Notes under the pieces: generated by a model
What the model saw: the letters and a program-made list of their open reading frames with translations, nothing else
Databases searched by the model: none
What the model was told of the DNA's origin: nothing
Position numbers and translations under genes: made by a program
Shown here: one piece after another, positions 31,913 to 54,094 of the stretch
Position numbering within the stretch: position 1 is the first letter of the stretch
Layout of the letters: each line of letters starts with the position of its first letter
Source of the DNA: Gammaproteobacteria bacterium
GTDB taxonomy: Bacteria; Pseudomonadota; Gammaproteobacteria; Ga0077554; Ga007554
Direction of reading: 5' to 3'
Assembly: GCA_021731145.1 (NCBI GenBank)
Contig: JAKFXX010000007.1
Location: 5,653-69,652 of the forward strand
Length of the DNA stretch: 64,000 nt

Positions 31913-33034
31913 TTAAAACTTGTAGATGGCTTGCAACGCGGTGGAGAGTTGATTGTCTGTGAACGTGCCGTCGCTCTTCAGGAAGCTCTTCTTGTCAGAC
32001 TTGTCGGCGCGTACTTCCGCCCGCAGTTCCACGTTTTCGGTCGGTATGTGGGCCAGCGTCAGCGTGGCTTCATCCCACTTCTGCGTGACGCCGGTGCGGT
32101 AGCCATTCTTGTCGTCGAAGGTCTCGGCGCGCAGTGCCACGCGCCAGGTATCGCTGAACTTGTAATTGGCGTAGCCAGCCACACCCCACCACTTCGCTTT
32201 CTCGCCCAGCGTCACGGCATTTTCCTGAGTGGCATAGTCGTAGTTGAGGACGAAGCTCAGGGCGTCGGTGGCGTTCCAGGTGGCGACCAGGTCAACCAGG
32301 TTGCGCAGACCAAGATCGCCGGTGCCCGCTGCGTTATTGGCATATTCCCTGCCGCTGTGGAGCGAACCAGCCAGAAGTAATGGCTTGACAGGGTTGGCGG
32401 AGAAGCCGAATTCCAGGGTCTTGTTCTGGTTGTTGTCCTTCTGTGCATCCCAGCCGTTGTTGACGCCAGCCATCAGTGACAGCGTGTCATTAACGGTGTA
32501 GGTCAGCCGCGCGCCAGTGTGGGCGAAGGGGATGGCGTAGCCGAACAGGATGGAGCGCGAGAAGTTCAGATTGCTGGGGCTTTTGATTACCTCGGCGCCC
32601 GCCAGCGTGACATATTTACCCGCGATTACCATTAGCGGGCCACTGGCGTAATGCACATAGGCCTGCTGCACCTCTTTGGTGTTGCCAGGGCCGGCGGCGG
32701 CAACCACCTCGGCATCCGGCCCGAAATTGAGGTTTACCAACCCGCCAAACCCGTTGGAGGGCAGCTTGGATACCGTCACGTCGATCATTTGCAGGTTAAA
32801 ATTGTTGCGCGTGGTGTCGAAGACGCGGTTGGCGACACCACTGGTGAATGCGCCAGTCCCTGACAGGCTGGTATAAGAAGTATCGATATACCCCGACACA
32901 TTGATCCCCGATGCCCCCATGATCTGCCCCAGGCTCGGTACACCCGGTTTCTCCGGCATTTTTTCTTCCGCAGCAAGCGCGGGAACGCTGGTAAGCAGGC
33001 TGACGGCAAAAAGCGTATTTTTGAATGTACTCAT
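31913..33034 (-). CDS. Outer-membrane porin (OmpL-like/BBP2-type beta-barrel)
   Basis: 373 aa. Signal peptide ...VPALAAEE; alternating beta-strand pattern; C-terminal ...LQAIYKF. Upstream of glnK-amtB. Confidence 0.7.
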   Translation of the reverse strand: MSTFKNTLFAVSLLTSVPALAAEEKMPEKPGVPSLGQIMGASGINVSGYIDTSYTSLSGTGAFTSGVANRVFDTTRNNFNLQMIDVTVSKLPSNGFGGLVNLNFGPDAEVVAAAGPGNTKEVQQAYVHYASGPLMVIAGKYVTLAGAEVIKSPSNLNFSRSILFGYAIPFAHTGARLTYTVNDTLSLMAGVNNGWDAQKDNNQNKTLEFGFSANPVKPLLLAGSLHSGREYANNAAGTGDLGLRNLVDLVATWNATDALSFVLNYDYATQENAVTLGEKAKWWGVAGYANYKFSDTWRVALRAETFDDKNGYRTGVTQKWDEATLTLAHIPTENVELRAEVRADKSDKKSFLKSDGTFTDNQLSTALQAIYKF

Positions 33035-33361
33035 GATCTCCCCTTAATAATCTGTTTCCGGGCAGGGCCGGGCTGTGGTTTTTTGTGAAAAATAACGGAA
33101 AAACTTCATTATGATCCGTACTCGCCAAGACAAGTGCAGATCCCATGCCATTGCAATATTATTTATAATAAACAATATTTTAAAAAATAAATGCGAAAGC
33201 TCAAGAAAATCTTGTGAACCAATATGGTGCGGCATGCCAAGGGCGTCGCACCGAAAAGGTGCGTCGCTGGCTGCGGATCAGATTTCCGCAAGCTGCCTGG
33301 CATAATGTTAGGCTATGGATGTGCGCGGAATCTGGCATGGGTGTTTCTGACGATGTGAGGA

Positions 33362-33682
33362 ATGATGATGAAAATAACGCAAGGGACGTTTTCATTTCTG
33401 CCTGACCTGACTGCCGAACAGCTCACGGCGCAGATTAGATATGCGCTGGAACAGGGCTGGGCAATACACATTGAATACACCAGCGACCCTGATCCACGCA
33501 ACGACTACTGGGACATGTGGGGCGCGCCACTGCTGGACCCGCATGACCCTGCGAGCATCGTGGCGGAAATCAACGCCTGCTGTGCGGCTAACCCAAACAG
33601 TTATGCACGGGTCACGGCGTTCGACAGCACTCTCAAGCGTAACACCAAGATGTCCTTTCTTGTGAACCGTCCCAAGGAATAG
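33362..33682 (+). CDS. Orphan RuBisCO small-subunit-like protein, red-type (form IC/ID-like) core without the C-terminal hairpin extension
   Basis: 106 aa. KITQGTFSFLPDLTAEQ, GWAIHIEYTSDPDPRNDYWDMWG and AFDST...MSFLVNRPKE match the red-type SSU pattern. GAGGA RBS before a triple ATG. No adjacent large subunit. Confidence 0.75.
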   Translation: MMMKITQGTFSFLPDLTAEQLTAQIRYALEQGWAIHIEYTSDPDPRNDYWDMWGAPLLDPHDPASIVAEINACCAANPNSYARVTAFDSTLKRNTKMSFLVNRPKE

Positions 33683-33696
33683 GGAGCAGCATTATT

Positions 33697-34089
33697 TTGG
33701 AGGCGTGTGTGCCTGATCGTTTGCGAGACATCCCACCTCTGAGATCGTTGCCCTATGCCATGGAGGCGGCGCGCTACAACCATGTCAAGCTGGCGTTGAT
33801 CCGTCTGGGCAGTCCTCTTGAATTCGATCTGCCGGATGCCGGTGTAGACCTGGTGTTGGACAACCATTCATGGATCGGTTTTTCCAGTTGGCAGGAGGCC
33901 TTCCCCCTATTTGAATGGACGGACTTTCAAACCACGCATCGTGAGTCATTGCACGAACCCATCGCCTGCACCCTGCACATCTATCATCTGCACGCGGGGG
34001 TGCTGTTGAGGCGGGCAGTAGAGGAGATGGATGCGCTGCTGGATGAGCGGTTGTCGAAGCCTGATCAGACGTCCCCGGGCAAGACATAG
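33697..34089 (+). CDS. Hypothetical protein (110-130 aa), no recognised family
   Basis: ORF starts 15 nt after the SSU-like stop. GGAGG at 33698 precedes an in-frame GTG at 33709; an alternative ATG is at 33760. The 3' end overlaps the convergent VOC gene by 25 nt. Confidence 0.4.
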   Translation: MEACVPDRLRDIPPLRSLPYAMEAARYNHVKLALIRLGSPLEFDLPDAGVDLVLDNHSWIGFSSWQEAFPLFEWTDFQTTHRESLHEPIACTLHIYHLHAGVLLRRAVEEMDALLDERLSKPDQTSPGKT

Positions 34090-34511
34090 GCCGTATCCCT
34101 GGCAAAAGGCGCCGCATTCTGCGCCCATTCCTCCTGCGGCACGTCCACGCCCAGCTCCACCACGTTGCCATCCGGATCCTGCACATAAAACGAGCGCATT
34201 ACGGTGTGGTCCACCGTACCTAAAAGAGTGGCGCCGCTGGCCTGGCAACGCTTGTAAAGCTGCGCCAGTGCCGGTTCGTCGCCGACATCAATACAGAAGT
34301 GGAACAGCCCCGTGTGTTGCGGTTGCGGCGACGCCGCGCTTGCACCAATCTCCATCAGCGCCAGATCGTGGTGATGCCCTCCCGCGCGGTAAAACCACAT
34401 CCTGCCCCGCTCTCCGACGCGTTCCATGCCGAGGATCTCCCGGTAAAAGTGATCGGATGCGTGCAAGTTGCGCACCTTCAGGACAACATGATTGATACCG
34501 CGTAACGTCAT
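34065..34511 (-). CDS. VOC (glyoxalase/bleomycin resistance/extradiol dioxygenase) family protein
   Basis: 148 aa. INHVVLKVRNLHASDHFYREILGM... and HFCIDV... beta-alpha-beta-beta-beta module pattern. Confidence 0.8.
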   Translation of the reverse strand: MTLRGINHVVLKVRNLHASDHFYREILGMERVGERGRMWFYRAGGHHHDLALMEIGASAASPQPQHTGLFHFCIDVGDEPALAQLYKRCQASGATLLGTVDHTVMRSFYVQDPDGNVVELGVDVPQEEWAQNAAPFARDTAYVLPGDV

Positions 34512-34753
34512 GGCGTATCCTTATAGAAATATCTTGCCGAAATCAGGTTGCTACACCGTCGATAGAACCTGCATAGTAAAAAACCTATAAAAATAATATT
34601 TATTACTGATTGTTATTTATATGTGCGCGGATTGTATAGTCGTGCCATGGGTAAGGATATTTGCGAGAGTTTCCTTAGTGTCAAGGCCGAGCGGGTGCGG
34701 AGATTGGTTTGATCTGCCGTGAGGTTAAATCCAAATTGGGTGAGTATGCAAGC

Positions 34754-37639
34754 ATGAATGAAACGACAAACAACGTATCAGCACCTGTCTCCTCCGGACG
34801 GGACATCGCTTTGCAGCGCCGCCGTGCTTTGTCGAGCAACGGCAAGGCAGGGCTGGCAGCAAGCAAGCCGACGGCAATGCGTAGCGCGTCCAGCCCTGCA
34901 AAACCCACGGAAAAACCTGCCGAGATAACGGCTCCCTCTGCGCCAACTGCACAAACACCGCCAGTTCAGGCTACACCGGCAGGCAGCATGAGTGGCAGTG
35001 AGCGTGCCCGCGCACGGCGCCAGGCGCTTGCGCAAAATGGCAAGGCGGGGTTGGGGTTAAAGACGGTGCAGCAGGGCAGATCACGGTCCGCAGTTACGGC
35101 GCCAGTGCAGGTCAATACGGCGGCGGAGCTGCCCGCTGAGGCATCGACTGCCAAAAAAGAGGGTTGTGGCTGCGGTTGCAAGCCCGGCCGGTCTCCCGAA
35201 TCAACGGTGGCGCTTCAGGCCGAAGCCCAGTTGGACCAGATATGCGAGACGGTGGAGGCCGATGCCAGCGTTGACAGCCCCGCCGTATCAACAGTGCGCG
35301 CCTTGTGTCTGGCGCGGAGGCAGGCGCTGGCGAATCACGGCAAGGCGGCACTGGGTAAAACAACTGGCGTGACCAGGGCGCAACAACTGGCGGGAACGGG
35401 GCGTGAAGGGGCGTGGAAAAATGCTGCCGCCAAGGGCTTGTCGGGACGCGAAATTGCGCGCGCACGCCGGGAAGAGTTATGCAGGCTTGGCCGTGGCAGT
35501 CAGGCCACCTGCCGTCCCTCGGGACGGACGCGCCCGGCCGCCGATTCGGCCGATGCTCCGCCAAAGGTTGAGGAGACCTCAACCCTGCGCGGCCAGGTTA
35601 TCAGCGGCACACGCGTGGAGCGCAGCACCAAGGTGACCGGCAACGAGCCGGGTACTTGCCGCACCATCACCGGCACCGAATATATCGCGCTGGATCAATA
35701 CGAAGGCTTTTGCGGCACCCGCCCGGCGGCGGGCGTCGCCAAGGTGGGCATGACCCGCACCGGGCGTGGTCAATCGGTCACGGGCGTGGAGGTGGGCCGT
35801 AGCATGAAGGTGACGGGCGATGAGCATGGCGCCTGCAAATCAGTCACGGGCACGGAATACATCGGCACTGAGCGCTTTGATGAATTTTGCGCTGAACGCC
35901 CGGCGGTTGCTCCAGCCAAGGTGAGCGCAGTGCAGACCGGGCGCGGGCAGACCGTTACCGGTGCCGAGGTGGGCCGCAGCTCGAAGGTGACAGGAGACGA
36001 GACAGGTTCGTGCCGTGCCATTACGGGTGATGAATACCTGAATCCAAAGGCATCCGCAGTGCCCTGTGCGAGCGAAAGTGATGGCGGCGCCCCTAAAAAG
36101 GTAGGTGCTACGCGGACATCTCATGGCTTGGCCGTTTCAGGAACGCAGGTAGGACGCTCGGTGAAGGTTACCGGTGATGAGCATGGTGCATGCATGTCGG
36201 TGACGGGCACCGAATATCTTGGTGCGGAGCAGTTCAAGTCTTTTTGTGCCGCCGATTCCGTTGCGGGGCCGCGCTCGGCAATCGCTCCCTGCATTGCCCT
36301 ACCTCCTGCATCCATGCAGTCGAAGGTGCAGGAGATGGCGACGCTCGGTGGTCAGGGGCTTACAGGTACAGCAGTTGGGCGCAGCGTAAGTGTGACCGGC
36401 GATGAGCCCGGTTCATGCCGACAGCTTACGGGCACGCAGTATTACACCCCCAATCAGTCCGGGCGGTTATGCGCCGAACCGGGTGCGCCTGCCAAAGTGG
36501 GTTTGACGCACACCATGAGCGAGCGCGGCATAACCGGCACAGACGTCGACCGCAGCTCAAAAGTGACGGGCAACGAGTACGGCGCGTGCAAACCCGTCAC
36601 CGGCACGGAGTACGTTAGCGCAGAGCAATATCAGACATTGTGTGGCAGCAAGCCCGCGCCCAACCCTGCAAAGGTGGGGGTTGCGCGCACCTGGCATCAG
36701 CAACAGGTGTCCGGCACCCAGGTGGGTCGCAGTGACAGAGTGACGGGCGATGAGTATGGCGGCTGCAAGCCGATTACCGGCACGGAATATATCGGCCCTG
36801 ATCAGTACGCTGCTTTTTGCCAGAATGATGAAACGGCCGCCAGCCAGGAGCGTGTTAGAACGTTGCGCAGCACGCCAGGTGCGATGCTTACCGGTATCCA
36901 GCCGGGCATCAACGGTCGCATGACGGGTGGCGGGCGCGGTGCATGTACGCCGGTCAGCGGTACCCCTTATGTGGGTACGGATCAGTTTGCGGGGCAGTGT
37001 GGCACGGCCGCCGCGCCTGCCGTGAATGCGCACCATCGCGTGTCCGGCCCGGCCGATGGCAGCGGCGCCCGCTCCCAGGTGACACTCTCTGCTGCAAGGG
37101 CGGCTGCATCGCCATCGGCACGGGTGCCGAGCCTGGACTTTAGCGTCACTACCCCGGCGCGCAGTGCCCAGACGCGCCAAACCCAGCGTATCACCGGCAC
37201 GGCCTATGCCAGCAGTGGTCGGGTCACCGGCCCGGTGACACTGGCGGCGGGACTGATCTCCGGTACGCCGGAATTCCGCTACACCGCTGATGAGGGTGTG
37301 ACGGCTGCGCGGGGTTACTCTGCTGCAGGCGCCGCGCCCGTTGCCCCCGAATCCGAACCCGAGCGCAAGCGCGTTACCGGTGAGGGACGCGAGAATGGAC
37401 GTGCCATCACCGGCGATGATTGGCAGCGTGGCAGCCGGGTAACCGGCACCGAAGGCTCCTGGGCCGCAGGGCGCAACATGACACAGCGTGGCGAGTCGCG
37501 CGACAGACCGGTCGCAGTGGGCGCGCGTAACTTCAAGGGAATGGAGAAACCGGAAGTGGCGCCAAGCCGTGTCACCGGCAGCAGCGGCAACACAGGCAGC
37601 GGCGCGGCTATCACGATCTCGGGTGGTGCGCGTGGGTAA
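34754..37639 (+). CDS. csoS2: Carboxysome assembly scaffold CsoS2
   Basis: Start taken at MNETTNN. Four N-terminal basic repeats (ALQRRRALSSNGKAG, ARARRQALAQNGKAGLG, CLARRQALANHGKAALG, IARARREELCRLGRG). Seven middle repeats of the type VTG(D/N)E.G.C+.(I/V)TGTEY....F/C. C-terminal RVTG-type repeats. Confidence 0.92.
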   Translation: MNETTNNVSAPVSSGRDIALQRRRALSSNGKAGLAASKPTAMRSASSPAKPTEKPAEITAPSAPTAQTPPVQATPAGSMSGSERARARRQALAQNGKAGLGLKTVQQGRSRSAVTAPVQVNTAAELPAEASTAKKEGCGCGCKPGRSPESTVALQAEAQLDQICETVEADASVDSPAVSTVRALCLARRQALANHGKAALGKTTGVTRAQQLAGTGREGAWKNAAAKGLSGREIARARREELCRLGRGSQATCRPSGRTRPAADSADAPPKVEETSTLRGQVISGTRVERSTKVTGNEPGTCRTITGTEYIALDQYEGFCGTRPAAGVAKVGMTRTGRGQSVTGVEVGRSMKVTGDEHGACKSVTGTEYIGTERFDEFCAERPAVAPAKVSAVQTGRGQTVTGAEVGRSSKVTGDETGSCRAITGDEYLNPKASAVPCASESDGGAPKKVGATRTSHGLAVSGTQVGRSVKVTGDEHGACMSVTGTEYLGAEQFKSFCAADSVAGPRSAIAPCIALPPASMQSKVQEMATLGGQGLTGTAVGRSVSVTGDEPGSCRQLTGTQYYTPNQSGRLCAEPGAPAKVGLTHTMSERGITGTDVDRSSKVTGNEYGACKPVTGTEYVSAEQYQTLCGSKPAPNPAKVGVARTWHQQQVSGTQVGRSDRVTGDEYGGCKPITGTEYIGPDQYAAFCQNDETAASQERVRTLRSTPGAMLTGIQPGINGRMTGGGRGACTPVSGTPYVGTDQFAGQCGTAAAPAVNAHHRVSGPADGSGARSQVTLSAARAAASPSARVPSLDFSVTTPARSAQTRQTQRITGTAYASSGRVTGPVTLAAGLISGTPEFRYTADEGVTAARGYSAAGAAPVAPESEPERKRVTGEGRENGRAITGDDWQRGSRVTGTEGSWAAGRNMTQRGESRDRPVAVGARNFKGMEKPEVAPSRVTGSSGNTGSGAAITISGGARG

Positions 37640-37649
37640 TCTGGATTGA

Positions 37650-39266
37650 ATGGGTAAGCAGCAAATGAGCCTCAGAAATCGCACATCGCACGGCAGGGGT
37701 GCCCAACGCGCTGGCCCGTATGGCCTGGGTACGCGCCATGCGGCGATGCCGTATCGAGGTTCTGCCACCGCTCCGGAGGCTGCGGGATCTGCCCCAGTCT
37801 GTGATGTGGTTGACGAGTTGTCGGCGGCTCCCTTGGCAGCGAGCGAAAGGGGAAGTGCGCCTCACCCCTTGTCCAATGCGGAAGAAAACCAGCGGTTGTA
37901 CGATTACGAGCGTTCGGTGAAGGACAAATTTGCCGCGATTATTCCGGTGCTCAAGGAAATCGCAGCAATCCAGCACGAACCGGGCTTTGTTCAGCATGCC
38001 CAGAATATTGCCCATGCCCGGCTGGGTTTTGCGCTGCCATCAAGCACGCTTGAGGATGCCTGGGTAGAGCAACTGGACATGCGCTCATTATATGCCCACT
38101 GCGTATTTCAGGCCTTCCATTGGGCTGCGGAGCGGTTTTGCGACGAACAGGCGCGGCAGCAGGTGACGATGGAGCAGACGTTATGCTCGTTGTTCGACTG
38201 CGGTTTTCACGAGGTGGATTTTTCGCCGTGCGCAGACGGGCGCCTGATGGGGCTGGTGACATTTATTTTGCGTCTGCCGTATGGCGCCGTGCGCAGAAAG
38301 TCCTATGCCGGCGCGATGTTCGATGTGGAAGCGAATGCCAGACACTGGATGCGCACCGAGTTTTACCGCTATCGCGAGGGTAAGCCCAGCCTGCCGGATG
38401 CTGGAACGCGCTATCTGAAAATTGCGGTGTATCACTGGAGCAGTTCCGATCCGGCGCATGAGGGTTGCGCCGCGCACGGCAGCAACGAGCGCGATGCCGC
38501 TGAGGCGGCGCTGAATCAACTGATTGCCTTCCGCCAGGCGATAGAGAATAGCTTCTGCTGCGGCGCGTCGGTGGATATATTGCTGATCGGTGTTGACACC
38601 GACACCGACAGCATCAAGGTACACATCCCGGATGCGGATGGCGCGATGAGCCTGTTTCGTTATGTCGACAGCGCGGAACTTTATCGCCAGAGTGCAGGGC
38701 TGGATGTAGGCAATGCGCATTTGTATGTGCATCGGGCGATTCAGGAGACGGCCCGTGCCGAGGGTTGGGCGCAAGGTAACGGTGCGCCGCACGAAGGCAT
38801 GTTGCGGCTGATTGCATCATTGCTCATTAACAACCTGTCGCAGATCGAATATGTGCGCCGGAACCACGGCGGACGTTATGGCGACATCGGCCACAATGAA
38901 TTGTTTATCAGCGTGGGCGAAGGGTTTGAAGAGGTGCAGATACGCAACCTCACCTATTACGCAGCGACGTACACGGTGGAGGAAGGCGCGGCGGACCTTG
39001 ATATCGGCATCAAGATTTTCAAGAAGCTGAACGTGACGCACGGGTTGCCTATCCCGATTATCGTTCACTATCGCTATGACAGCCGGGTGCCGGGATCGAA
39101 ACAGCGCATCATGGCGCAGTGTCGGCGGATGAAGGCGGCGATCGAAGCACGGTACAGTGAGTTGAAGCAAAAAGGGCTGTTGGTATGCGCAATGGCGGTA
39201 CAGGATAAAACGCCTGGCAGCCGGATCGAGATGATCAATGATGAGGCGGTTCTTGCTCATCCCTGA
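37650..39266 (+). CDS. csoS3: Carboxysome shell carbonic anhydrase CsoSCA (CsoS3)
   Basis: 538 aa. Directly after csoS2. HPLSNAEENQRLYDYERSVKDKFAAIIPVLKEI N-domain and catalytic-domain Cys/His pattern (SPCADGRL..., HEGCAAHGSN) collinear with CsoSCA. The true start may be internal. Confidence 0.85.
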   Translation: MGKQQMSLRNRTSHGRGAQRAGPYGLGTRHAAMPYRGSATAPEAAGSAPVCDVVDELSAAPLAASERGSAPHPLSNAEENQRLYDYERSVKDKFAAIIPVLKEIAAIQHEPGFVQHAQNIAHARLGFALPSSTLEDAWVEQLDMRSLYAHCVFQAFHWAAERFCDEQARQQVTMEQTLCSLFDCGFHEVDFSPCADGRLMGLVTFILRLPYGAVRRKSYAGAMFDVEANARHWMRTEFYRYREGKPSLPDAGTRYLKIAVYHWSSSDPAHEGCAAHGSNERDAAEAALNQLIAFRQAIENSFCCGASVDILLIGVDTDTDSIKVHIPDADGAMSLFRYVDSAELYRQSAGLDVGNAHLYVHRAIQETARAEGWAQGNGAPHEGMLRLIASLLINNLSQIEYVRRNHGGRYGDIGHNELFISVGEGFEEVQIRNLTYYAATYTVEEGAADLDIGIKIFKKLNVTHGLPIPIIVHYRYDSRVPGSKQRIMAQCRRMKAAIEARYSELKQKGLLVCAMAVQDKTPGSRIEMINDEAVLAHP

Positions 39267-39332
39267 GTTCACCGCACTTGGCATCCTGCCCGGCGGCGGC
39301 AGATACGGTCATTAGATTTACTGGAGTGGAAC

Positions 39333-39581
39333 ATGAAGATTTGTCAGGTAGAGAAGACCTTGGTTTCCACAAATCGCATCAGAGAAATGGGACACAAACC
39401 CCTGCTGGTCGTGAAAGAGAAGAGCGGTGGCCGCAGTGTCGCGGTTGATGCGGTAGGATGCATTCCCGGCGACTGGGTGATTGTGGTGGGCAGTTCGGCG
39501 GCACGCGAGGCGGCGGGCAGCAAAGAATACCCGAGCGACGCTACCATTGTTGGCATTATTGATCACTGGAAGGAAGAATGA
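39333..39581 (+). CDS. csoS4A: Carboxysome vertex pentamer protein CsoS4A (EutN/CcmL family)
   Basis: 82 aa. MKICQVEKTLVSTNRI...AVDAVGCIPGDWVIVVGSSAAR pattern of BMC-P. Confidence 0.88.
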   Translation: MKICQVEKTLVSTNRIREMGHKPLLVVKEKSGGRSVAVDAVGCIPGDWVIVVGSSAAREAAGSKEYPSDATIVGIIDHWKEE

Positions 39582-39584
39582 CCG

Positions 39585-39869
39585 ATGGACATCCTGCAGG
39601 TGGTTGATGAGCTGGTGGTAACCCGTCGCATTCCAGGTTTGTACGGCGCCTCGTTGCGGATCATGCGTGACGCCAAAGGCAAGCTCAGCGTGGCGACCGA
39701 TCCGGTGGGTGTGCCGCCAGGAAAATGGGTTTTCACCGCAAGTGGTTCAGCCGCACGCTATGCGATGGGCAACTACAAGGTTCTTACTGATCTTGCGATT
39801 GGCGGGATCATAGACCAGTGGGATACGGAAGAAGCAGGCGACAGCGCATCTGCGAAAAAGGTTGTTTGA
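39585..39869 (+). CDS. csoS4B: Carboxysome vertex pentamer protein CsoS4B (EutN/CcmL family)
   Basis: 94 aa. MDILQVVDELVVTRRIPGL...ATDPVGVPPGKWVFTASGSAAR. Confidence 0.88.
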   Translation: MDILQVVDELVVTRRIPGLYGASLRIMRDAKGKLSVATDPVGVPPGKWVFTASGSAARYAMGNYKVLTDLAIGGIIDQWDTEEAGDSASAKKVV

Positions 39870-39925
39870 GTCAAAATTGTTTATGGGCGTGATTTTTTAT
39901 TTTACGAGAAAGAGAGGTGGTGAAA

Positions 39926-40225
39926 ATGGCAAATGAACGGTATGGAATTGCATTGGGCATGATCGAAACGCGTGGCTTGGTGCCTGCCATTGAAGCGGCG
40001 GATGCCATGACCAAGGCAGCGGAAGTGCGTCTGATTGGGCGTCAATTCGTCGGTGGCGGCTACGTCACTGTGCTGGTACGCGGTGAAACCGGCGCAGTCA
40101 ACGCCGCTGTGCGTGCCGGTGCGGATGCCTGCGAACGTGTCGGCGATGGCCTGGTGGCAGCGCACATCATCGCACGCGTGCATAGCGAGGTGGAAAACAT
40201 TCTGCCGGCACGTCCTGGCGCGTAA
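39926..40225 (+). CDS. csoS1: Carboxysome shell hexamer protein CsoS1 (BMC-H), copy 1
   Basis: MANERYGIALGMIETRGLVPAIEAADAMTKAAEVRLIGRQFVGGGYVTVLVRGETGAVNAAVRAG... ATG at 39926. Confidence 0.95.
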   Translation: MANERYGIALGMIETRGLVPAIEAADAMTKAAEVRLIGRQFVGGGYVTVLVRGETGAVNAAVRAGADACERVGDGLVAAHIIARVHSEVENILPARPGA

Positions 40226-40274
40226 GGTTTTTCGGTTTTTTTGGCTTCTTTAATGAGATAAATGAGGAATAGAC

Positions 40275-40577
40275 ATGGCTAACGAAGTGACGGGTATTGC
40301 ATTGGGTATGATTGAAACACGCGGCTTGGTGCCTGCCATCGAAGCGGCGGATGCCATGACCAAGGCAGCGGAAGTGCGTCTGATCGGGCGTCAGTTCGTC
40401 GGCGGCGGCTACGTCACCGTGCTGGTGCGCGGCGAAACCGGCGCAGTCAACGCCGCTGTGCGTGCTGGTGCGGATGCCTGTGAGCGTGTCGGCGATGGCC
40501 TGGTGGCAGCCCACATCATCGCGCGCGTACACAACGAAGTGGAAAATATTTTGCCCAGCAAGCCCACAGCGGGCTGA
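40275..40577 (+). CDS. csoS1: Carboxysome shell hexamer protein CsoS1 (BMC-H), copy 2
   Basis: Core of ~80 aa identical to copies 1 and 3; differs in the first ~6 and last ~10 residues. Confidence 0.95.
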   Translation: MANEVTGIALGMIETRGLVPAIEAADAMTKAAEVRLIGRQFVGGGYVTVLVRGETGAVNAAVRAGADACERVGDGLVAAHIIARVHNEVENILPSKPTAG

Positions 40578-40640
40578 ATGAACAAGCCGCAGGCTTGATT
40601 TGAATCCGGGTAGTTATTATTTTTTGAGGAGCAATAAGAA

Positions 40641-40979
40641 ATGGCAAATACTTTTCATGGTATTGCATTGGGTATGATTGAAACGCGTGGTCTGGTGCCT
40701 GCTATCGAAGCGGCCGATGCCATGACCAAGGCAGCGGAAGTGCGCTTGATCGGGCGTCAGTTCGTCGGCGGCGGCTACGTCACCGTGCTGGTGCGCGGCG
40801 AAACCGGCGCAGTCAACGCCGCTGTGCGTGCCGGTGCGGATGCCTGTGAGCGTGTTGGCGATGGCCTGGTGGCAGCGCACATCATCGCACGCGTACACAG
40901 CGAAGTAGAAAACATCCTGCCGCAAACGCCGGGTGGCGAAGGCGGACTTGACGCGGAAATCACCCAAGTTCGTAGCTGA
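40641..40979 (+). CDS. csoS1: Carboxysome shell hexamer protein CsoS1 (BMC-H), copy 3, longer C-terminal tail
   Basis: Same BMC core. The tail ...LPQTPGGEGGLDAEITQVRS is unique to this copy. Confidence 0.95.
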   Translation: MANTFHGIALGMIETRGLVPAIEAADAMTKAAEVRLIGRQFVGGGYVTVLVRGETGAVNAAVRAGADACERVGDGLVAAHIIARVHSEVENILPQTPGGEGGLDAEITQVRS

Positions 40980-41079
40980 TGGTGAGAGATAGCCGCCATA
41001 ATCAGGCACACTCCAGTGCATTCGCTTATGGCGGCCGCTGCTTCCGGCATGATATTGACAGCGCAAAGAGGCTGATTCC

Positions 41080-41517
41080 ATGATGCCAAATCCGCGCCTG
41101 ATAGGTTTTCTTAATCGTGCGCTAAGCCATGAAATGGCGGCGGTGCAACAATACCTCATGCAGTCCAGACTTGCCGCGTTGTGGGGAATGGCGGAACTCA
41201 GCGAACAATTCCGCCGTGATGTGGAGGAGGAGCTGGTCCATGCCGAGCGTCTCATGGAACGCATGCTGATTTACGGCGCCACCGCCAACGCCACCCAGCT
41301 TATCCCTGTCAGGCTGGGTAGGACGCTGTCGGAAATACTCGATATCAACCGTGCCATCGAACTTGAGGCGGTGCGTTTATACGAGGAAGCGGCGGATTAT
41401 TGTGAGCGCACCCGGGATTTTGAAAATCGTGATCTGTTTGCGGGTATACTGGAGGAAGAAATTGCACACCTTCGGCATATTGATAAACTGCAACAGTCAC
41501 TAATGAAACAGGTGTAA
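41080..41517 (+). CDS. Bacterioferritin-like (ferritin-like di-iron) protein of cso operons
   Basis: 145 aa. Four-helix ferritin pattern with E...E..H pairs (EEELVHAERL, EEEIAHLRHI). Confidence 0.75.
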   Translation: MMPNPRLIGFLNRALSHEMAAVQQYLMQSRLAALWGMAELSEQFRRDVEEELVHAERLMERMLIYGATANATQLIPVRLGRTLSEILDINRAIELEAVRLYEEAADYCERTRDFENRDLFAGILEEEIAHLRHIDKLQQSLMKQV

Positions 41518-41521
41518 CGCC

Positions 41522-41809
41522 ATGCACGACGAACGCGCTCCAAGCACCCTTTCAGCGGCATGGGAGCAACGCGAAAAGCCTGCCTCACTCAGTCGCCGTC
41601 TGGCTTTTCCGTCATACGCCGAGACCCGCCGCTTTCTCGATTGGCTGGCTGCCTTGTCGGAGCGCGATGGCTATTACCCAAGCAGCAGCTTTGGTACCAC
41701 CTATGTCAATATAACCATTGATGCGCGTGACGGACAGGCTATCAGTCCCGCCGATCTCGCATTTGCGCACGAGATTGATGTCTTCTGCGAAAATTCAGGC
41801 ACTGCGTAA
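41522..41809 (+). CDS. Pterin-4a-carbinolamine dehydratase-like protein (alpha-carboxysome RuBisCO assembly factor type)
   Basis: 95 aa. L.R...F.S+.E...FL..L....E...++P......T.V.I.+ pattern of the PCD fold. Position after the bfr-like gene is conserved in cso clusters. Confidence 0.65.
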   Translation: MHDERAPSTLSAAWEQREKPASLSRRLAFPSYAETRRFLDWLAALSERDGYYPSSSFGTTYVNITIDARDGQAISPADLAFAHEIDVFCENSGTA

Positions 41810-41819
41810 GGCACAACAT

Positions 41820-42458
41820 ATGCCCACACAGGTGTTTGCGATAGCGAATCAGAAGGGTGGTACGGGCAAAACCACCCTCACCATGAACCTGGCGGCCGGC
41901 TTGGCGCGCCGTGGTCGCACCTTGGTGGTGGATGCTGACCCGCAGGGATCCGCCAGCCAGTGGGCGCGCCTGGCGCCGGAGGAGCGCGCTTATCCCGCCA
42001 CGGTGATCGCAGTGGCAGGTAGCTTGAGCCGGGAAATTGGGCGTTTCCGGCAGGATTATCAATATATTGTGGTGGATTGCCCGCCAACGCTGGAGAACGA
42101 TGCCGTGCGTCTGGCGATGGTGGCAGCGGACAGGGTACTGATTCCGGTGCTGCCGTCACCCATGGATTTATGGGCGAGCGTGCGTATGGCCAAGGCCGTT
42201 GAAAGCGCAAGGCAGGACAATCGCAATTTACAAGCGCATTTAATCCTCAACCAGCTTGAGGTGCGCAATGCGTTGTCACGCTCCATGCGACAGGCGCTCG
42301 CTGAGTTTGACATCCCGGCGCTGAAAAACGCCGTGCAGCGCCGCGCCATCTATCGCAGCGCGGCGCTGGAAGGGGCGAGTGTGTATGAGCTTGCGAATCG
42401 CGGCAAACCCGCTGCCGCAGAAATTGACGCCATCATTGAGGAGATACTGGATCTATGA
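41820..42458 (+). CDS. mcdA: ParA/MinD-family ATPase, carboxysome-positioning McdA-like
   Basis: Start taken at MPTQVFAIANQKGGTGKTT (deviant Walker A with signature Lys). VVDCPP Walker B region. Located at the end of the cso operon. Confidence 0.8.
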   Translation: MPTQVFAIANQKGGTGKTTLTMNLAAGLARRGRTLVVDADPQGSASQWARLAPEERAYPATVIAVAGSLSREIGRFRQDYQYIVVDCPPTLENDAVRLAMVAADRVLIPVLPSPMDLWASVRMAKAVESARQDNRNLQAHLILNQLEVRNALSRSMRQALAEFDIPALKNAVQRRAIYRSAALEGASVYELANRGKPAAAEIDAIIEEILDL

Positions 42459-42649
42459 AAAAACTGGAAACCAAGCTGGCGGCCGGCGTGCGCCAAGCCA
42501 AAAAATCGCAGGAGTTGCCGGAGTCATCCACGACGCCTGCCTCGACTCCAACGCCGCCCCAAGCCGCGCGCCAAAGCGATCAGTCGCCTGCCTCGGCTCG
42601 GGATGATGCGCGGAACAACCTCCACCCGGAGCGGGTTTGGCCGGATTAA
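42455..42649 (+). CDS. Small disordered protein, McdB-like (C-terminal ...RVWPD)
   Basis: 64 aa. ATGA overlap with the ParA-like gene. Basic N-terminus, P/S/T/Q/A-rich low-complexity middle, Trp three residues from the C-terminus. Confidence 0.45.
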   Translation: MKKLETKLAAGVRQAKKSQELPESSTTPASTPTPPQAARQSDQSPASARDDARNNLHPERVWPD

Positions 42650-43651: not shown

Positions 43652-43688
43652 AAGTTGGGTTCCTGAAAAAATACCTGCATTGCTATAT

Positions 43689-43706
43689 GATAGACAAAAT
43701 TCTATC
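43689..43706. promoter_or_regulatory. Perfect inverted repeat GATAGA-N6-TCTATC in the cbbR/sulP divergent region
   Basis: Read directly. Lies 38-55 bp upstream of the proposed cbbR ATG. Confidence 0.45.
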
Positions 43707-43820
43707 AAGACAATCATAAAAATCTAATTATATTTATCTAACCTTTGAATGTATTCTCGGCAACACATATTCAATATCAATATCGCGCGATGTGCATGGT
43801 ATACCCTAGAGTGAGCCGAG

Positions 43821-48819: not shown

Positions 48820-50244
48820 ATGGCAGTTGCAAAGAAATACAGCGCCGGCGTTAAAGAGTACCGTCAAACGTACTGGATGCCGGAATACACCCCTCTGGAC
48901 ACCGATATCCTGGCCTGCTTCAAGATCACCCCGCAACCCGGCGTGGATCGTGAAGAGGCTGCCGCTGCCGTGGCTGCTGAATCTTCTACCGGTACCTGGA
49001 CCACGGTGTGGACCGATTTGCTGACCGACATGGATTACTACAAAGGCCGCGCTTACCGCATCGAAGACGTGCCTGGCGACGATACCTGCTATTACGCCTT
49101 CATCGCCTACCCCATCGACCTGTTCGAAGAAGGCTCCGTGGTCAACGTGTTCACCTCGCTGGTGGGTAACGTGTTCGGCTTCAAGGCCGTGCGTGCGCTG
49201 CGTTTGGAAGACGTGCGCTTCCCCATCGCCTACGTCAAGACCTGCGGCGGCCCGCCCATGGGTATCCAGGTTGAACGCGACATCATGAACAAGTATGGCC
49301 GTCCTTTGCTGGGTTGCACCATCAAGCCCAAGCTCGGTCTGTCCGCCAAGAACTACGGCCGCGCCGTATACGAATGTCTGCGCGGTGGTCTGGATTTCAC
49401 CAAGGACGACGAGAACATCAACAGCCAGCCATTCATGCGCTGGAGACAGCGTTTTGACTTCGTGCAAGAAGCGACCATCAAGGCAGAGCGTGAGACCGGC
49501 GAGCGTAAAGGCCACTACCTGAACGTAACGGCTCCTACCCCGGAAGAGATGTACAAGCGTGCCGAGCACGCCAAAGACATCGGCGCGCCGATCATCATGC
49601 ACGATTACATCACTGGCGGTTTCTGCGCCAACACGGGTCTGGCCAACTGGTGCCGTGACAACGGCATGTTGCTGCACATCCATCGCGCCATGCACGCCGT
49701 GCTTGATCGCAACCCGCACCACGGTATTCACTTCCGCGTGTTGGCCAAGATCCTGCGCCTGTCCGGCGGTGACCATCTGCACACCGGTACTGTGGTTGGC
49801 AAGCTTGAAGGCGACCGTGAAGCGACCCTGGGCTGGATTGACATTCTGCGTGAGTCTTTCATTCCTGAAGACCGTTCGCGCGGCATTTTCTTTGATCAGG
49901 ACTGGGGCTCCATGCCCGGCGTGTTCGCCGTGGCTTCGGGCGGCATCCACGTCTGGCACATGCCTGCGCTGGTTAGCATCTTTGGCGATGACTCCGTGCT
50001 GCAGTTCGGTGGCGGCACCTTGGGCCATCCCTGGGGCAACGCGGCGGGCGCAGCAGCAAACCGCGTAGCACTGGAAGCCTGCGTGAAGGCACGTAACGAA
50101 GGTGTTGAGATCGAGAAGGCTGGCAAGGAAATCCTGACCAAGGCCGCTCAGAGCAGCCCCGAACTGAAGATCGCCATGGAAACATGGAAAGAGATCAAGT
50201 TCGAGTTCGACACCGTCGACAAGCTGGACGTGGCACACAAGTAA
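48820..50244 (+). CDS. cbbL: RuBisCO large subunit, form IA (green-type)
   Basis: 474 aa. [45 protein letters not shown] (carbamyl-Lys region), [11 protein letters not shown]. Confidence 0.96.
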
Positions 50245-50339
50245 GCGCGCACATGCGGGGGCGGAGCTTGTCAGCGATTGATCGCGGTCAAGGCCGCTCC
50301 TGCAATTCCATAGCACACAGAATTGAGGAGTTTTAAAAA

Positions 50340-50696
50340 ATGAGCGAAATGCAAGATTACAAATCACGCTTGAGCGATCCCGCCAGCCGCAAGTTCGAGA
50401 CCTTCTCCTACCTGCCGGCGATGACATCTGACGAAATCAAAAAGCAGGTGGAATATCTCGTTAAAAAAGGTTGGAATCCGGCTGTTGAGCACGTCGAGCC
50501 AGAAAACCTGATGGATGACTACTGGTATATGTGGAAGCTGCCGATGTTCGGCGAGACCGATATCAGCAAAATCCTGGCCGAGGTCGAGGCTTGCCGCAGG
50601 GCCAACCCCGACAACCACATCCGCCTGATTGGGTATGACAATTTTGCCCAGTCCCAGGGTGCTGCCATGGTTGTTTACCGCGGTAAGACGGTTTAA
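50340..50696 (+). CDS. cbbS: RuBisCO small subunit, form IA
   Basis: 118 aa. [33 protein letters not shown]...[11 protein letters not shown]...[12 protein letters not shown]. Confidence 0.93.
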
Positions 50697-50713
50697 ATCT
50701 GCAAGGGCGGTGA

Positions 50714-50769
50714 CCCCGCCCCTGCATGTAAAGAGCCCTCGTTGCCGCAAGGTGGCGGGGGTTTTTTTT
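50714..50769 (+). terminator. Probable intrinsic terminator/attenuator between cbbS and cbbQ
   Basis: CCCCGCC (50714-50720) pairs with GGCGGGG (50754-50760), followed by T8 (50762-50769). An additional hairpin sits at 50701-50725. Confidence 0.55.
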
Positions 50770-50870
50770 AGAAATGAGTTTAACCGCCAAGTCGCCAAGA
50801 ATTTTGCATTTTGGGTCTTGGGTAGCGCTCTTGACGCCTTGGCTGTTAAACATTCTGGAGCAAGTGAACC

Positions 50871-51674
50871 ATGAACGACGTGATCAAGCAGTACCTGATA
50901 ACCGAAAAACCCTATTATCACCCGGTTGCGGATGAAATCGAGCTGTATGAGGCGGCCTATTCCGTGCGCATGCCGATGATGCTGAAAGGCCCAACCGGCT
51001 GCGGCAAGACCCGCTTTGTCGAATATATCGCGTGGAAACTCGGCAAGCCGCTGATCACCGTCGCTTGTAATGAAGACATGACGGCCTCCGATCTGGTCGG
51101 GCGCTTCCTGCTCGATGCCAGCGGCACGCGCTGGCAGGACGGGCCGCTCGCTATCGCCGCCCGTTATGGTGCGATCTGCTACCTTGATGAAGTCGTCGAG
51201 GCACGCCAGGACACCACGGTGGTGATACATCCGCTCACCGATGCGCGCCGTATGCTGCCGCTGGAGAAGAAAGGCGAGTTGGTGCAGGCCCATCCCGATT
51301 TTCAGTTGGTGATCTCCTATAATCCGGGCTATCAGAGCTTGATGAAAGATCTGAAGCAATCCACCAAGCAACGTTTCGGTGCGCTGGATTTCAACTATCC
51401 GTCGCATGATGTCGAAACCGAGATCGTGGCGCACGAAACCGGCGTCAGCAATGATGTCGCAGGCAAACTGGTGAGCATCGCCGAGCGTGCCCGCAACCTC
51501 AAGGGGCATGGCCTGGATGAAGGCATCTCCACGCGTATGCTGGTATACGCAGGTTCGCTCATCGCCAAGGGTGTGGATGCCAAGTCCGCCTGTCTTGTGA
51601 CACTGGTGCGGCCGATTACCGACGATCCCGATATGCGCGATGCGCTGGACTCGGCGGTAACGACGTTTTTTTAA
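50871..51674 (+). CDS. cbbQ: RuBisCO activase subunit CbbQ (MoxR-type AAA+)
   Basis: 267 aa. Walker A GPTGCGKT, Walker [10 protein letters not shown]. Follows cbbLS. Confidence 0.92.
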
Positions 51675-51763
51675 GGTTCAGGAATCCGGGAGGACGGTGA
51701 AGGCCGTCCCCCCGGGCGCGATTCGACCTGCACACTGATCCCCGACTTCTGGACACTTAAAAA

Positions 51764-54094
51764 ATGGCAATCAATCTCGACGATTATCAAGATATCCTCG
51801 ACGAACTGGGTGAGCATGCCGCCGAAGTGTTGCGTTCTTCGTGGCAGGAGGCGACCAAGGTGTTCAGCCCCCGGGGGCTGGAAGATTACCTGCAAGGCGC
51901 AAAGGGCCTGAAAAACCTTGGGCGCGGCATCGAGCTGGTGGTCACCTATATTCAGGAGGCACCGGAGGTGGCGCGGGAAATCGGCGAGGATGCCGTGCCT
52001 GATCTGGTGCAAACCGCCATGATGATGGCGTCCAAGACCAGCGGTGCAGTGATCGAGATGATTTTCGCCACCGCGCCTGTCGCCGCCAAGCGTTTGGGTG
52101 ATGAGCAGCTATTCCGCGGTTACCTGCAATTGCTCAATCACCTGATTGCCCAGGCGCCGCGTGGGCTGCGCCCGATGCTGGACAAGCTTGACGTGCTGTT
52201 CGGCCAGCTCACCCTGGGTGGTCTGCGGCGCTGGGCGCTATGGGGCGCGCAGGCGCACCGCACCGATTATCCCGAGCAGGTCCGGTATTTCGGGCTGGAA
52301 AGCAAAGAAGCGCTGGCGGTGCTGCAAAAAGAGCGCAAGGGTACGTTGTTCGTGGATGTGCAGCGGCGCATCAACATCTACTTGCGCGCCTTGTGGGGCC
52401 GGGATTTCTTTATGCGCCCCACCAGCGGCGATTTCGAGAACCGCGAGGGTTACCAGCCCTTCATCGAGAACTATTTCATTCACCTGCCGGATGCCTACGA
52501 TGATTTCGAGGGCATCCCCGGCCTGGAGCTCTACCGCGCCACGGCGGCGCATGCCGCTGCCCATATCGTTTACTCACGCACGCCAATCTCTGCGGAAAGC
52601 TTGAGTCCGCTGCAAATGGCGGTGGTCTCTGTCATCGAGGACGCGCGGGTGGAGCAGCTCGCGATCAACGCCTTCCCCGGCTTGCGCCAACTGTGGGCTG
52701 CGCTTCATAACACCACCCCTGACCAGCAGGCAAGCGTGGGTGATTTTCTCAATCGCCTGGCGCGGGCGCTGCTCGATCCCGACTATCATGACGATCATGC
52801 GTGGGTTCAAAAGGGCCGTGACCTGTTTCGGCAGGCACAGGAAAACCTCGCCGATAACCGGATCTCCTGGGACATCGGTGTTGCCTTGGCGCATGATTTT
52901 GCGCAGATGCGCCTCGCCTCATTTAATCCTCGCACCGATGTGTTGCGCGCGCTCTACCGCGATGACAACCGTTATTTCTGGGAATTCGAGGAGTTCGATT
53001 TTGCCAAAAGCCTGGAGGCCACCTGGGGCGCGGCCAAGCAGGTGCGCAAGCATGTCAGCCTGATGGAGTTCGTCAACGAAGTCGAGGTGGAGACGGCGGG
53101 CGATGACGCCGAGGAAATCTGGGTGCTGCCCACGGAGCTGTTCCCCTACGAGGACGAGGGTAAGAGCTATAATGAAATGGAAGGCAAGGAGCCGGTCTCC
53201 CCGCCCTATCACTACCACGAATGGGATTATCAGATCCAGTTGGAGCGCCCGAGTTGGTGTACGTTGCTGGAAAAGCGTCCCCAGCTTGGTGATTTGGCCG
53301 TTGTCGATGACATTGTGGCGAAGAATAAGCCCATCATCAGCCGTTTGAAATATCTGATCGAGGCTATGCAGCCGCAGGGTGTGCAGCGCTTGCGCAAGCA
53401 GGAGGACGGCGACGAAATCGACATCAACGCCGCGATTCGCGCCATGATCGAAATACGCCAGGGCGAGATGCCCGACCCGCGCATCATGATGCGCAATATC
53501 CGCAAGGTGCGTGATCTGTCGGTGCTGGTGCTGCTGGATCTGTCCGAGTCCACCAACGAGCTGGTGCGCGGTTCGGAGAGTTCGGTGCTCTCGCTGTCAC
53601 GCGAGGCCACAGTGCTACTCGCCGATGCCATGAACAAGATCGGCGATCCGTTTGCCATTCATGGGTTCTCATCCAATGGCCGCCATGACGTGGAATACTA
53701 CCGCTTCAAGGATTTCGGCGCGCCTTATGACGAGAAAGCCAGGGCCAGAATCGCGGGCATGACCGGGCAACTCTCAACGCGCATGGGCACGGCGATCCGC
53801 CATGCCGGCCAGTTCCTGAAGTATCAGTCGTCCAGCAAAAAACTGCTGCTGGTGATCACCGATGGCGAGCCTGCCGATGTCGATGTGCGCGACCCGCAAT
53901 ACCTGCGCTTCGATGCCAAAAAATCGGTGGAAGAGATGAATCGCAATGGTATTCTCACCTATTGCATGAGCCTCGATCCCCACGCCGACCAGTATGTGTC
54001 ACGCATTTTCGGCGCGAAAAACTTCATGGTGGTGGATCATGTGCAGCGCCTGCCGGAGAAACTGCCGATGCTGTATATGGGGCTGACGCGGTAG
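51764..54094 (+). CDS. cbbO: RuBisCO activase adaptor CbbO (C-terminal VWA domain)
   Basis: 776 aa. VWA/MIDAS region VLVLLDLSESTN...ITDGEPAD. Follows cbbQ. Confidence 0.9.
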   Translation: MAINLDDYQDILDELGEHAAEVLRSSWQEATKVFSPRGLEDYLQGAKGLKNLGRGIELVVTYIQEAPEVAREIGEDAVPDLVQTAMMMASKTSGAVIEMIFATAPVAAKRLGDEQLFRGYLQLLNHLIAQAPRGLRPMLDKLDVLFGQLTLGGLRRWALWGAQAHRTDYPEQVRYFGLESKEALAVLQKERKGTLFVDVQRRINIYLRALWGRDFFMRPTSGDFENREGYQPFIENYFIHLPDAYDDFEGIPGLELYRATAAHAAAHIVYSRTPISAESLSPLQMAVVSVIEDARVEQLAINAFPGLRQLWAALHNTTPDQQASVGDFLNRLARALLDPDYHDDHAWVQKGRDLFRQAQENLADNRISWDIGVALAHDFAQMRLASFNPRTDVLRALYRDDNRYFWEFEEFDFAKSLEATWGAAKQVRKHVSLMEFVNEVEVETAGDDAEEIWVLPTELFPYEDEGKSYNEMEGKEPVSPPYHYHEWDYQIQLERPSWCTLLEKRPQLGDLAVVDDIVAKNKPIISRLKYLIEAMQPQGVQRLRKQEDGDEIDINAAIRAMIEIRQGEMPDPRIMMRNIRKVRDLSVLVLLDLSESTNELVRGSESSVLSLSREATVLLADAMNKIGDPFAIHGFSSNGRHDVEYYRFKDFGAPYDEKARARIAGMTGQLSTRMGTAIRHAGQFLKYQSSSKKLLLVITDGEPADVDVRDPQYLRFDAKKSVEEMNRNGILTYCMSLDPHADQYVSRIFGAKNFMVVDHVQRLPEKLPMLYMGLTR

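Follow-up and report, generated by a model that had tools for sequence, protein, structure and literature searches.

Small-Subunit-Like Modules and RuBisCO

The fold of the RuBisCO small subunit (SSU) also occurs in modules other than the regular subunit of the enzyme: the SSU-like (SSUL) domains of CcmM and of the activase-like ALC of cyanobacteria are the precedent for the binding of RuBisCO by such modules. To our knowledge, modules of this kind with an organising or regulatory role for RuBisCO have been described from cyanobacteria only. Here, we describe a pair of adjacent small genes, one for a short SSU-like protein and the other for a partner of a different family, found in a 64,000-nucleotide stretch of DNA (the window, positions 5,653 to 69,652 of contig JAKFXX010000007.1, assembly GCA_021731145.1) from an uncultured gammaproteobacterium, next to an alpha-carboxysome operon devoid of RuBisCO genes. 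Judged from sequence comparisons and gene order, the two genes probably make up a RuBisCO accessory module that has not been described before. In the literature outside subscription-only papers, we found neither a stand-alone SSU-like protein from proteobacteria nor the family to which the partner belongs described, and a paper on a RuBisCO cluster from a vent (PMC5506194, orf06) offered no relevant information.

The resemblance to the cyanobacterial domains lies in the existence of an SSU-fold module that is not the regular small subunit and that is encoded together with genes of RuBisCO or with CCM (CO2-concentrating mechanism) genes. Unlike CcmM and ALC, the window protein is a stand-alone, single-domain protein of 104 aa with neither tandem repeats nor a fusion to a gamma-carbonic anhydrase or an AAA+ domain; moreover, it is of red-type descent and proteobacterial, it keeps its N-terminal arm, and it comes with a small partner to which it is unrelated. 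With the NCBIfam model for CcmM, it scores 27 bits against a cutoff of 550, no better than the true CbbS of the window with its 25 bits.

Two further systems are relevant. In red-type RuBisCO, the C-terminal hairpin of the SSU makes extensive contacts in the central pore and is a built-in assembly aid (PMC9833100). In the atypical alpha-carboxysome loci of Thiobacillaceae, cbbLS lies apart from csoS1-4 (Sutter, Kerfeld, Scott et al. 2022, PMC9164163). The window locus is like the latter in being led by csoS2, in lacking cbbLS, and in having a form IA cbbLS(QO) several kb away; it is unlike them in having an SSU-like gene and its partner beside the locus as an optional insert, neither of which is mentioned in that review.

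The Short SSU-Like Gene

The longest open reading frame (ORF) of the SSU-like gene, 33362-33682 on the plus strand, opens with the first of three candidate ATGs. Since the GAGGA sequence in front of it leaves zero spacing to this first ATG, the third one is the probable start (Table 1), and the 104-aa product that results is identical to the public product P0305, labelled "ribulose bisphosphate carboxylase small subunit" in public records.

An earlier, sequence-only reading of this DNA had recognised in this ORF, with its GAGGA ribosome-binding site, a red-type SSU core that ends prematurely after NRP and that has no large-subunit gene beside it. All of this was borne out. The ORF matches the Pfam SSU profile PF00101 (RuBisCO_small) over its full length (positions 1-97 of 97; 114.3 bits against a cutoff of 27; E 2.6e-33), and its best relatives of solved structure are the red-type SSUs of Cupriavidus necator (1bxn_I) and Rhodobacter sphaeroides (5nv3_I), both with E values of about 1e-36 and both aligned only over their residues 1-104 of 129-139. 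In a search of 5.8 billion clustered proteins, the sole close match among those listed was P0001 (104 aa, 93% identity); the 119 further matches listed after it were 58-67% identical and all 128-149 aa long. The window protein ends after NRPKE, where the red-type C-terminal beta-hairpin (betaE-betaF) would begin, and the C-terminal extension of about 35 aa that it lacks is present in all 119 of these canonical red-type proteins. As for a large subunit, the upstream neighbour is a divergent BBP2 porin gene, and neither a red-type cbbL nor cbbX is present in the 64-kb window.

The affinity of the protein is with red-type SSUs, from which it has nevertheless departed. Identity to the nearest of them is 63-67% over the core; the mean identity to canonical red-type cores is 63% versus 78% among these cores themselves, and with the form IA CbbS of the window, the protein has 35% of its residues in common. 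In the SSU phylogeny that the sequence-only reading had proposed, here a neighbour-joining tree, the protein falls on the red-type side, at the base of the canonical sequences. It shares with red-type CbbS (that of 1bxn_I, of 5nv3_I, and of Thermithiobacillus tepidarius) the Pfam domain, an N-terminal ITQGTFSFLPDLT, the EYT.DP.PRN.YW.MWG signature, and NRP; unlike them, it has no hairpin, its gene lies away from cbbL and cbbX, and residues invariant in the canonical proteins are replaced. Of the ten nearly universal SSU residues (S9, L11, P12, Y25, E36, W48, L53, P54, F56, and E67 in C. necator numbering; PMC9164163), eight are kept and two are changed (L53 to A and F56 to L). The positions D39, H42, and E92, invariant in the 119 canonical red-type SSUs, are replaced in every clade of short SSU-like proteins, and F56 is replaced in all short sequences but one (P0277). 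Within the clade of the window protein, the departures at canonical-invariant positions are D16A, D39S/N, H42D, M55L, F56L, R72C, G90K, and E92N, while the N-terminal TQGTFSFLPDLT arm is retained.

The retention of this arm and of most SSU-conserved residues, and the coverage of only part of the genome, leave room for a genuine small subunit whose large subunit, red-type or not, has its gene beyond the window. Against this stand the loss of the hairpin that defines red-type SSUs and that is active in their assembly (PMC9833100), the replacement of the otherwise invariant H42, F56, and E92, and the position of canonical red-type cbbS, which directly follows cbbL in 12 of the 12 complete operons examined. 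Moreover, a form IA operon that hosts a comparable pair in other lineages (L034 and L036, see below) already has its own cbbS. We therefore consider a role as the ordinary subunit of an unseen enzyme to be quite improbable.

The Partner Gene and Its Family

The partner gene starts 14-26 nt past the stop codon of the SSU-like gene, depending on the start codon chosen: its longest ORF begins at TTG 33697, and a GGAGG at 33699-33703 precedes GTG 33709, which is more probably the true start. The 126-aa product from this GTG is P0314, a "hypothetical protein" in public records. The sequence-only reading had found this second ORF unclassifiable, a verdict that does not survive profile searches. A HMMER search of 1.84 billion representative proteins assigns it to a family of at least 173 representative clusters at E<=1e-3 (92 at E<=1e-10), most members of which are of about 105-145 aa, with a few shorter fragments or longer mis-called products. 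Over a domain of about 115 aa, the conserved residues are N28, W59, P70, W74, F77, and C91, by which the window partner qualifies as a member.

The size of the family was apparent only at full sensitivity, for a word-indexed search had given a single cluster and a first metagenome scan none; for the scanning of loci, a 61-sequence alignment proved too diverse and a 7-sequence alignment worked. Some longer members (P0127, P0269, and others) were considered as possible fusions, and these appear to be start-site or read-through artefacts that are uninformative.

The family is uncatalogued: none of 84 members had a match in Pfam scans, and a profile search of the PDB sequences found no relative. 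An AlphaFold2 model of the partner, based on an 84-sequence alignment, has a predicted local distance difference test score (pLDDT) of 91 and a predicted template-modelling score of 0.83 (a model from a 2-sequence alignment, with a pLDDT of 55, was unusable). The predicted fold is that of a small alpha/beta protein, with a helix followed by strand-helix-five strands-helix. A Foldseek comparison of this model with the PDB returned nothing significant, the best E being 0.21 and the best TM 0.36, with scattered helix-grip or Aha1-like matches. The idea that the partner is a cryptic second SSU was ruled out by an hhalign comparison of the two families, which gave a probability of 0.04.

The gene order around the family is highly consistent. 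In 20 loci, a gene of this family directly follows cbbX, the order being cbbL, cbbS (136-145 aa), cbbX, and the family ORF wherever the contig is long enough; in two more loci (L019 and L020), it lies about 1.8 kb past cbbX within the same cbb cluster. The complete genome of T. tepidarius DSM 3134 has the order cbbL(483)-cbbS(139)-cbbX(320)-ORF121. The window partner is 45% identical to the post-cbbX ORF of locus L005 and 58% identical to the T. tepidarius type (WP_028990218.1), and in a neighbour-joining tree, it joins the cbbX-linked proteins of the latter type with 98% bootstrap support. It is not itself located after cbbX; what precedes it is the short SSU-like gene. On the evidence of these relatives, the partner ORF is the key to the locus, and the unit is a two-gene derivative of a red-type operon rather than a lone SSU gene.

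Other genes accompany the family in form IC clusters. Genes for psiE and a marC-like protein often come after the post-cbbX gene (L004/L005, L006-L009, and L055). In L020, the family gene is separated from cbbX by a class II aldolase-like gene, and the ORF that comes after the family gene (8377-9144) has a motif like that of a beta-carbonic anhydrase, as judged from its sequence only.

Origin from a Form IC Operon

The canonical form IC operon of proteobacteria, such as that of T. tepidarius DSM 3134, is the source architecture, of which the window keeps only the core of cbbS and the last gene. The CbbS of T. tepidarius and the window protein both read ...NRPKE, after which the former runs on into the hairpin and the latter stops. 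The pair derives from an operon cbbL-cbbS-cbbX-ORF that no longer has cbbL, cbbX, or the 3' end of cbbS that codes for the hairpin. In the simplest history, cbbL would have been lost from one flank, whereas cbbX would have gone from the middle together with the part of cbbS for the hairpin. A tblastn search of the cassette that carries the pair detected no remnant of cbbL, the hairpin, or cbbX.

Selection on the Pair

The ratio of nonsynonymous to synonymous substitutions (dN/dS) was obtained by the Nei-Gojobori method from the window and three orthologous loci (L001, L002, and L003) with about 84% nucleotide identity. These share the gene order amt, glnK, porin (minus strand), SSU-like gene and partner ORF (plus strand), VOC gene (minus strand), and csoS2 with the rest of the cso operon. 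The ratio is 0.06-0.18 for the SSU-like gene and 0.11-0.15 for the partner ORF (with dS values of 0.18-0.44 for these two genes), as compared with 0.13-0.16 for csoS2, 0.11-0.14 for csoSCA, and 0.04-0.10 for the VOC gene. Both genes of the pair are under purifying selection comparable to that on the neighbouring cso genes. L002 has an in-frame deletion of three codons and the same stop codon. In a second clade of short SSU genes, omega is about 0.08-0.16, with dS near saturation.

These results bear on the idea that a form IC operon has degraded and left the pair behind without function, a fate for which the sequence-only reading had expected relaxed selection on the SSU-like gene. The disappearance of cbbL, cbbX, and the SSU hairpin, the changes in several canonical-invariant SSU residues, and the absence of the cassette from the closest relatives (see below) might all be seen as signs of decay. 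However, both ORFs are intact in every copy, the one indel is in frame, the low dN/dS resembles that of the flanking genes, and the two-gene architecture recurs elsewhere, where it is coupled by overlaps within cbbLSQO. A decaying pseudogene is excluded by the low ratios and by the deletion that preserves the stop codon; the idea of a leftover is largely refuted by the selection data and is very improbable indeed.

Recurrence of the Pair in Other Lineages

A profile made from two divergent short SSU-like proteins of metagenome loci led to six clusters of proteins of 106-109 aa. In two metagenome-assembled genomes (L034 and L036), cbbR on the minus strand is followed by cbbL(474)-cbbS(119)-cbbQ-cbbO-SSUL(107)-partner(122). 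In both genomes, the SSUL gene shares 4 nt with the partner gene; it also overlaps cbbO by 4 nt in L034 and begins 4 nt after it in L036. The 20 kb covered there are free of cso genes. A third locus, L016, has cbbO-SSUL-partner, and in three others (L017, L037, and L038), the pair is by itself, flanked by a gene for an acetyltransferase and one for a signal peptidase. Two or more unrelated lineages thus have this two-gene architecture, and in one of these, gene overlaps couple it to form IA cbbLSQO where that operon ends. Since the partners from these other loci do not group with the window partner in the neighbour-joining tree, the pair probably arose at least twice.

The Pair as a Presence/Absence Cassette

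Further relatives of the window locus were gathered via proteins identical to its CsoS4A and CsoS1. The pair is present in L001, L041 (the L002 contig), and L045. In L049, L040, and L044, it is absent and the porin and VOC genes are adjacent, although the carboxysome and cbbLSQO genes are shared; L039 and its group have no pair either, and their upstream flank is different. The closest relative of all is L049, with nucleotide identities of 96.5% in csoSCA, 91.9% in csoS2, and 99.6% in the csoS2 leader, and it has no pair. The pair is therefore facultative, and dispensable, in this lineage. Consequently, the synteny of SSU-like gene, partner, and csoS2, to which the sequence-only reading had looked for evidence of a conserved association, holds in L001-L003 and fails in L049, L040, L044, and L039.

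Alignment with the empty sites defines a cassette that comprises both genes and about 100 nt of their own upstream DNA, with 7-nt direct repeats at its edges (Table 1). The right edge lies just past the conserved domain of the partner, and the last 12 or so partner codons (window 34049-34089) use DNA that is also found at the empty site, with a 25-nt overlap with the 3' end of the convergent VOC gene. The tail of the partner is thus probably read from flanking DNA. Since these last codons lie in empty-site DNA, the history of the cassette fits insertion better than deletion, without this amounting to proof.

The BBP2 porin gene next to the cassette (31913-33034, minus strand) has about 70% nucleotide identity to its counterparts in L001 and L045 and 89-92% to those in L041, L040, L044, and L049; the genes that neighbour it are about 90% identical in all these relatives. 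This mosaic suggests recombination around the cassette site.

Candidate Promoter Elements and the Carboxysome Operon

The sequence-only reading had placed the SSU-like gene at the head of the cso operon and had given it a promoter sharing an identical 15-nt box with that of cbbL. The first of these claims fails, because the VOC gene on the minus strand, whose 3' end overlaps the partner gene, lies before csoS2; the SSU-like gene and its partner are thus a separate unit. With regard to the second, the box itself is real: the 15-mer AATATTATTTATAAT occurs exactly at 33155 and 48649, and with up to two mismatches, there are 5 matches in the window versus 0 in 100 shuffles. It belongs, however, to the porin-side DNA beyond the cassette, and relatives with neither gene have it conserved as well. 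For this reason, it cannot be counted as a promoter element of the SSU-like gene. A promoter-like site found there by a consensus scan (minus strand, 33204-33177) faces the porin gene.

An AT-rich core, AATATTATTT(A/T)TA, is common to three sites, namely 33155-33179, 34585-34600 on the reverse strand in the csoS2 leader, and 48649-48663 in the cbbR-cbbL intergenic region, all of them conserved in relatives. This motif may be a common operator for a shared regulator, and the locus has two LysR/CbbR genes. Within the cassette, a candidate extended -10-like element upstream of the SSU-like gene was read by eye and was not reported by the consensus scan (Table 1). Two other candidates were discarded: the 11-mer ATGTGCGCGGA, shared with the csoS2 leader, was treated as a chance match since it is not conserved in relatives, and the matches to the 15-nt box at 21548-21579 fall in the AT-rich start of a coding region.

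The possibility to be weighed here is that of a dedicated alpha-carboxysome component co-expressed with the cso operon, be it a cargo organiser like the SSUL domains of CcmM or a small subunit specific to carboxysomes. The pair does lie about 0.7 kb upstream of csoS2, next to a locus without RuBisCO, the cargo enzyme is encoded 15 kb away, and the AATATTATTT core is common to the porin-side region and to the csoS2 and cbbL promoters. But the pair has a convergent gene between it and the cso operon, the shared box is outside the cassette, four relatives or groups with the same cso locus do without the pair (one of them, L049, with 96.5% nucleotide identity in csoSCA), and the pair of L034 and L036 belongs to a cbbLSQO operon, no cso gene being present in the 20 kb covered there. 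A dedicated carboxysome component is, on this evidence, improbable.

Proposed Role

The reading that we prefer is that of a facultative accessory pair that is directed at RuBisCO and has been co-opted for the form IA enzyme, and to this we give an even chance. The two proteins would act together, as the retention of only these two genes on each occasion suggests. The SSU-like protein would dock on the form IA RuBisCO whose genes lie 15 kb downstream, either at the sites of the small subunit (the TQGTFSFLPDLT arm being retained in the window version) or on the surface of RuBisCO, as do the cyanobacterial SSUL domains; the loss of the hairpin and of the red-type-invariant residues would amount to a release from the red-type L8 core. 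The partner, in turn, would supply an accessory activity in assembly, stabilisation, or regulation. A role as alternative subunit is possible for the window version because hybrid enzymes that combine red-type small subunits with large ones of green type have been described (Read and Tabita 1992, as cited in PMC9833100). Surface binding and an alternative-subunit role are equally possible, the former especially for the clade without the arm.

The sequence-only reading had entertained two options, an alternative or hybrid SSU and an SSU-like, RuBisCO-binding accessory of the alpha-carboxysome. That the pair works with the form IA enzyme is plausible, since cbbLSQO operons elsewhere include a comparable pair; the notion of a constant companion of the carboxysome is contradicted by the relatives that lack the pair.

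A more specific version of the accessory reading is that the post-cbbX family as a whole is a RuBisCO accessory factor that works through the small subunit and that the short SSU-like protein serves as its portable adaptor, such that the transfer of both would let the factor act on a foreign, green-type RuBisCO of form IA. We offer this only tentatively, as an idea that is possible but doubtful.

Several points weigh against a RuBisCO-directed pair. The case is built on sequence and gene order, with expression and binding as predictions; it covers 64 kb of the genome, and the carriers are uncultured. The trees are neighbour-joining trees of proteins of about 110 residues. The predicted fold of the partner offered no functional clue, the closest relatives, with the same carboxysome and cbbLSQO genes, do without the pair, and the L016/L034 clade has no FSFLP (TQGTFSFLPDLT) arm, which makes one common mode of binding doubtful. 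Finally, one lineage (L017, L037, and L038) has the pair with no cbb gene within 10 kb. This last observation, the loss of the arm in the L016 clade, and a partner fold without known relatives are what might be expected if the function were unrelated to RuBisCO and the SSU fold had been re-used as a binding module for something else. Such a change of function is unlikely, given that the parent family is tightly tied to RuBisCO operons and that, of the three contexts of the derived pair, two belong to RuBisCO or the CCM.

Organisation of the Window

The coordinates of the features discussed here are given in Table 1.

Table 1. Features of the pair and its surroundings (window coordinates).
Feature	Coordinates	Strand	Remarks
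AT-rich near-palindrome with 15-nt box of cbbL promoter	33155..33179		Outside cassette; conserved in relatives without cassette
Cassette, ~790 bp	33268..34056	+	Both genes and ~100 nt of own upstream DNA; edges +/- ~10 nt; from alignment with L049, L040, L044
GATCAGA, left copy	33276..33282	+	7-nt direct repeat at cassette edge
TGgCATAAT	33298..33306	+	Candidate extended -10-like element inside cassette; exact in L001, one mismatch in L041 (CATCAT)
GAGGA ribosome-binding site of SSU-like gene	33357..33361	+	6 nt before ATG 33368; sequence reading
Short SSU-like gene	33368..33682	+	104 aa from ATG 33368; red-type SSU core without betaE-betaF hairpin
Partner gene	33709..34089	+	126 aa from GTG 33709; uncatalogued family, usual place after cbbX in form IC operons
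GATCAGA, right copy	34063..34069	+	7-nt direct repeat at cassette edge
Convergent VOC/glyoxalase gene	34065..34511	-	PF00903, E 5.8e-15; in all relatives; separates cassette from csoS2
RuBisCO-less alpha-carboxysome operon	34754..42649	+	Context, outside cassette
Form IA cbbL-cbbS-cbbQ-cbbO	48820..54094	+	Candidate client enzyme; sole RuBisCO in window

The cso operon is, as the sequence-only reading had it, led by csoS2 (start at 34754) and without cbbLS. It contains csoS2, csoSCA, csoS4A, csoS4B, three csoS1 genes, and genes for ferritin-like, PCD/acRAF-like, and ParA(McdA)-like proteins, plus a small McdB-like ORF. The three tandem csoS1 paralogues (39917-40979, plus strand) have a core of about 80 aa that differs at only one residue, and differ mainly at their N and C termini, the third copy (112 aa) having an extended C-terminal tail. 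The small ORF (42455-42649, plus strand; 64 aa) overlaps the stop codon of the ParA-like gene (41718-42458), is rich in Pro, Ser, Thr, Ala, and Gln, and ends in RVWPD; it resembles McdB, the partner of McdA in the positioning of alpha-carboxysomes (PMC8359340), and relatives have a called gene of 61-64 aa in this place.

After the cso operon come a LysR gene, genes for SulP, SbtA, and SbtB, cbbR, and cbbLSQO. The cluster for the uptake of dissolved inorganic carbon (43821-47600, plus strand) encodes a 754-aa SulP-family transporter, in which the match to the Pfam domain is limited to residues 24-398, SbtA (PF05982), and a P-II-like SbtB; the two LysR regulators that flank it (42674-43717 and 47611-48609) are both on the minus strand and divergent. 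The only RuBisCO of the window is of form IA, as had been claimed, its CbbL scoring 1024 bits with that of H. neapolitanus (1svd) versus 615 bits with the red-type 1bxn, and it is accompanied by cbbQ and cbbO. At some distance, a type I restriction-modification system (1950-10656, plus strand; HsdM, HsdS, and HsdR) has a gene with Schlafen/AlbA_2 and HATPase_c_4 domains (5831-7504) between hsdS and hsdR.

Significance for RuBisCO Biology

The absence of a known assembly factor for red-type RuBisCO is a recognised obstacle to engineering this enzyme into plants (PMC9833100), which makes the conserved post-cbbX gene a concrete candidate for such a factor. All of the parts are small and amenable to work in E. 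coli, and the parent gene is available from T. tepidarius DSM 3134, which is in culture and has a completely sequenced genome. The occurrence of the pair both at form IA cbbLSQO operons and beside a carboxysome locus without RuBisCO also bears on a question raised in PMC9164163, that is, how RuBisCO of the non-carboxysomal form IA type is handled in organisms with atypical carboxysome loci. The adaptor model, if true, would account for the joint retention of just these two genes on at least two occasions. It would also provide a new candidate partner protein for red-type RuBisCO, whose only known assembly or auxiliary factor is CbbX, and it would be a case from nature of hybrid small-subunit use.

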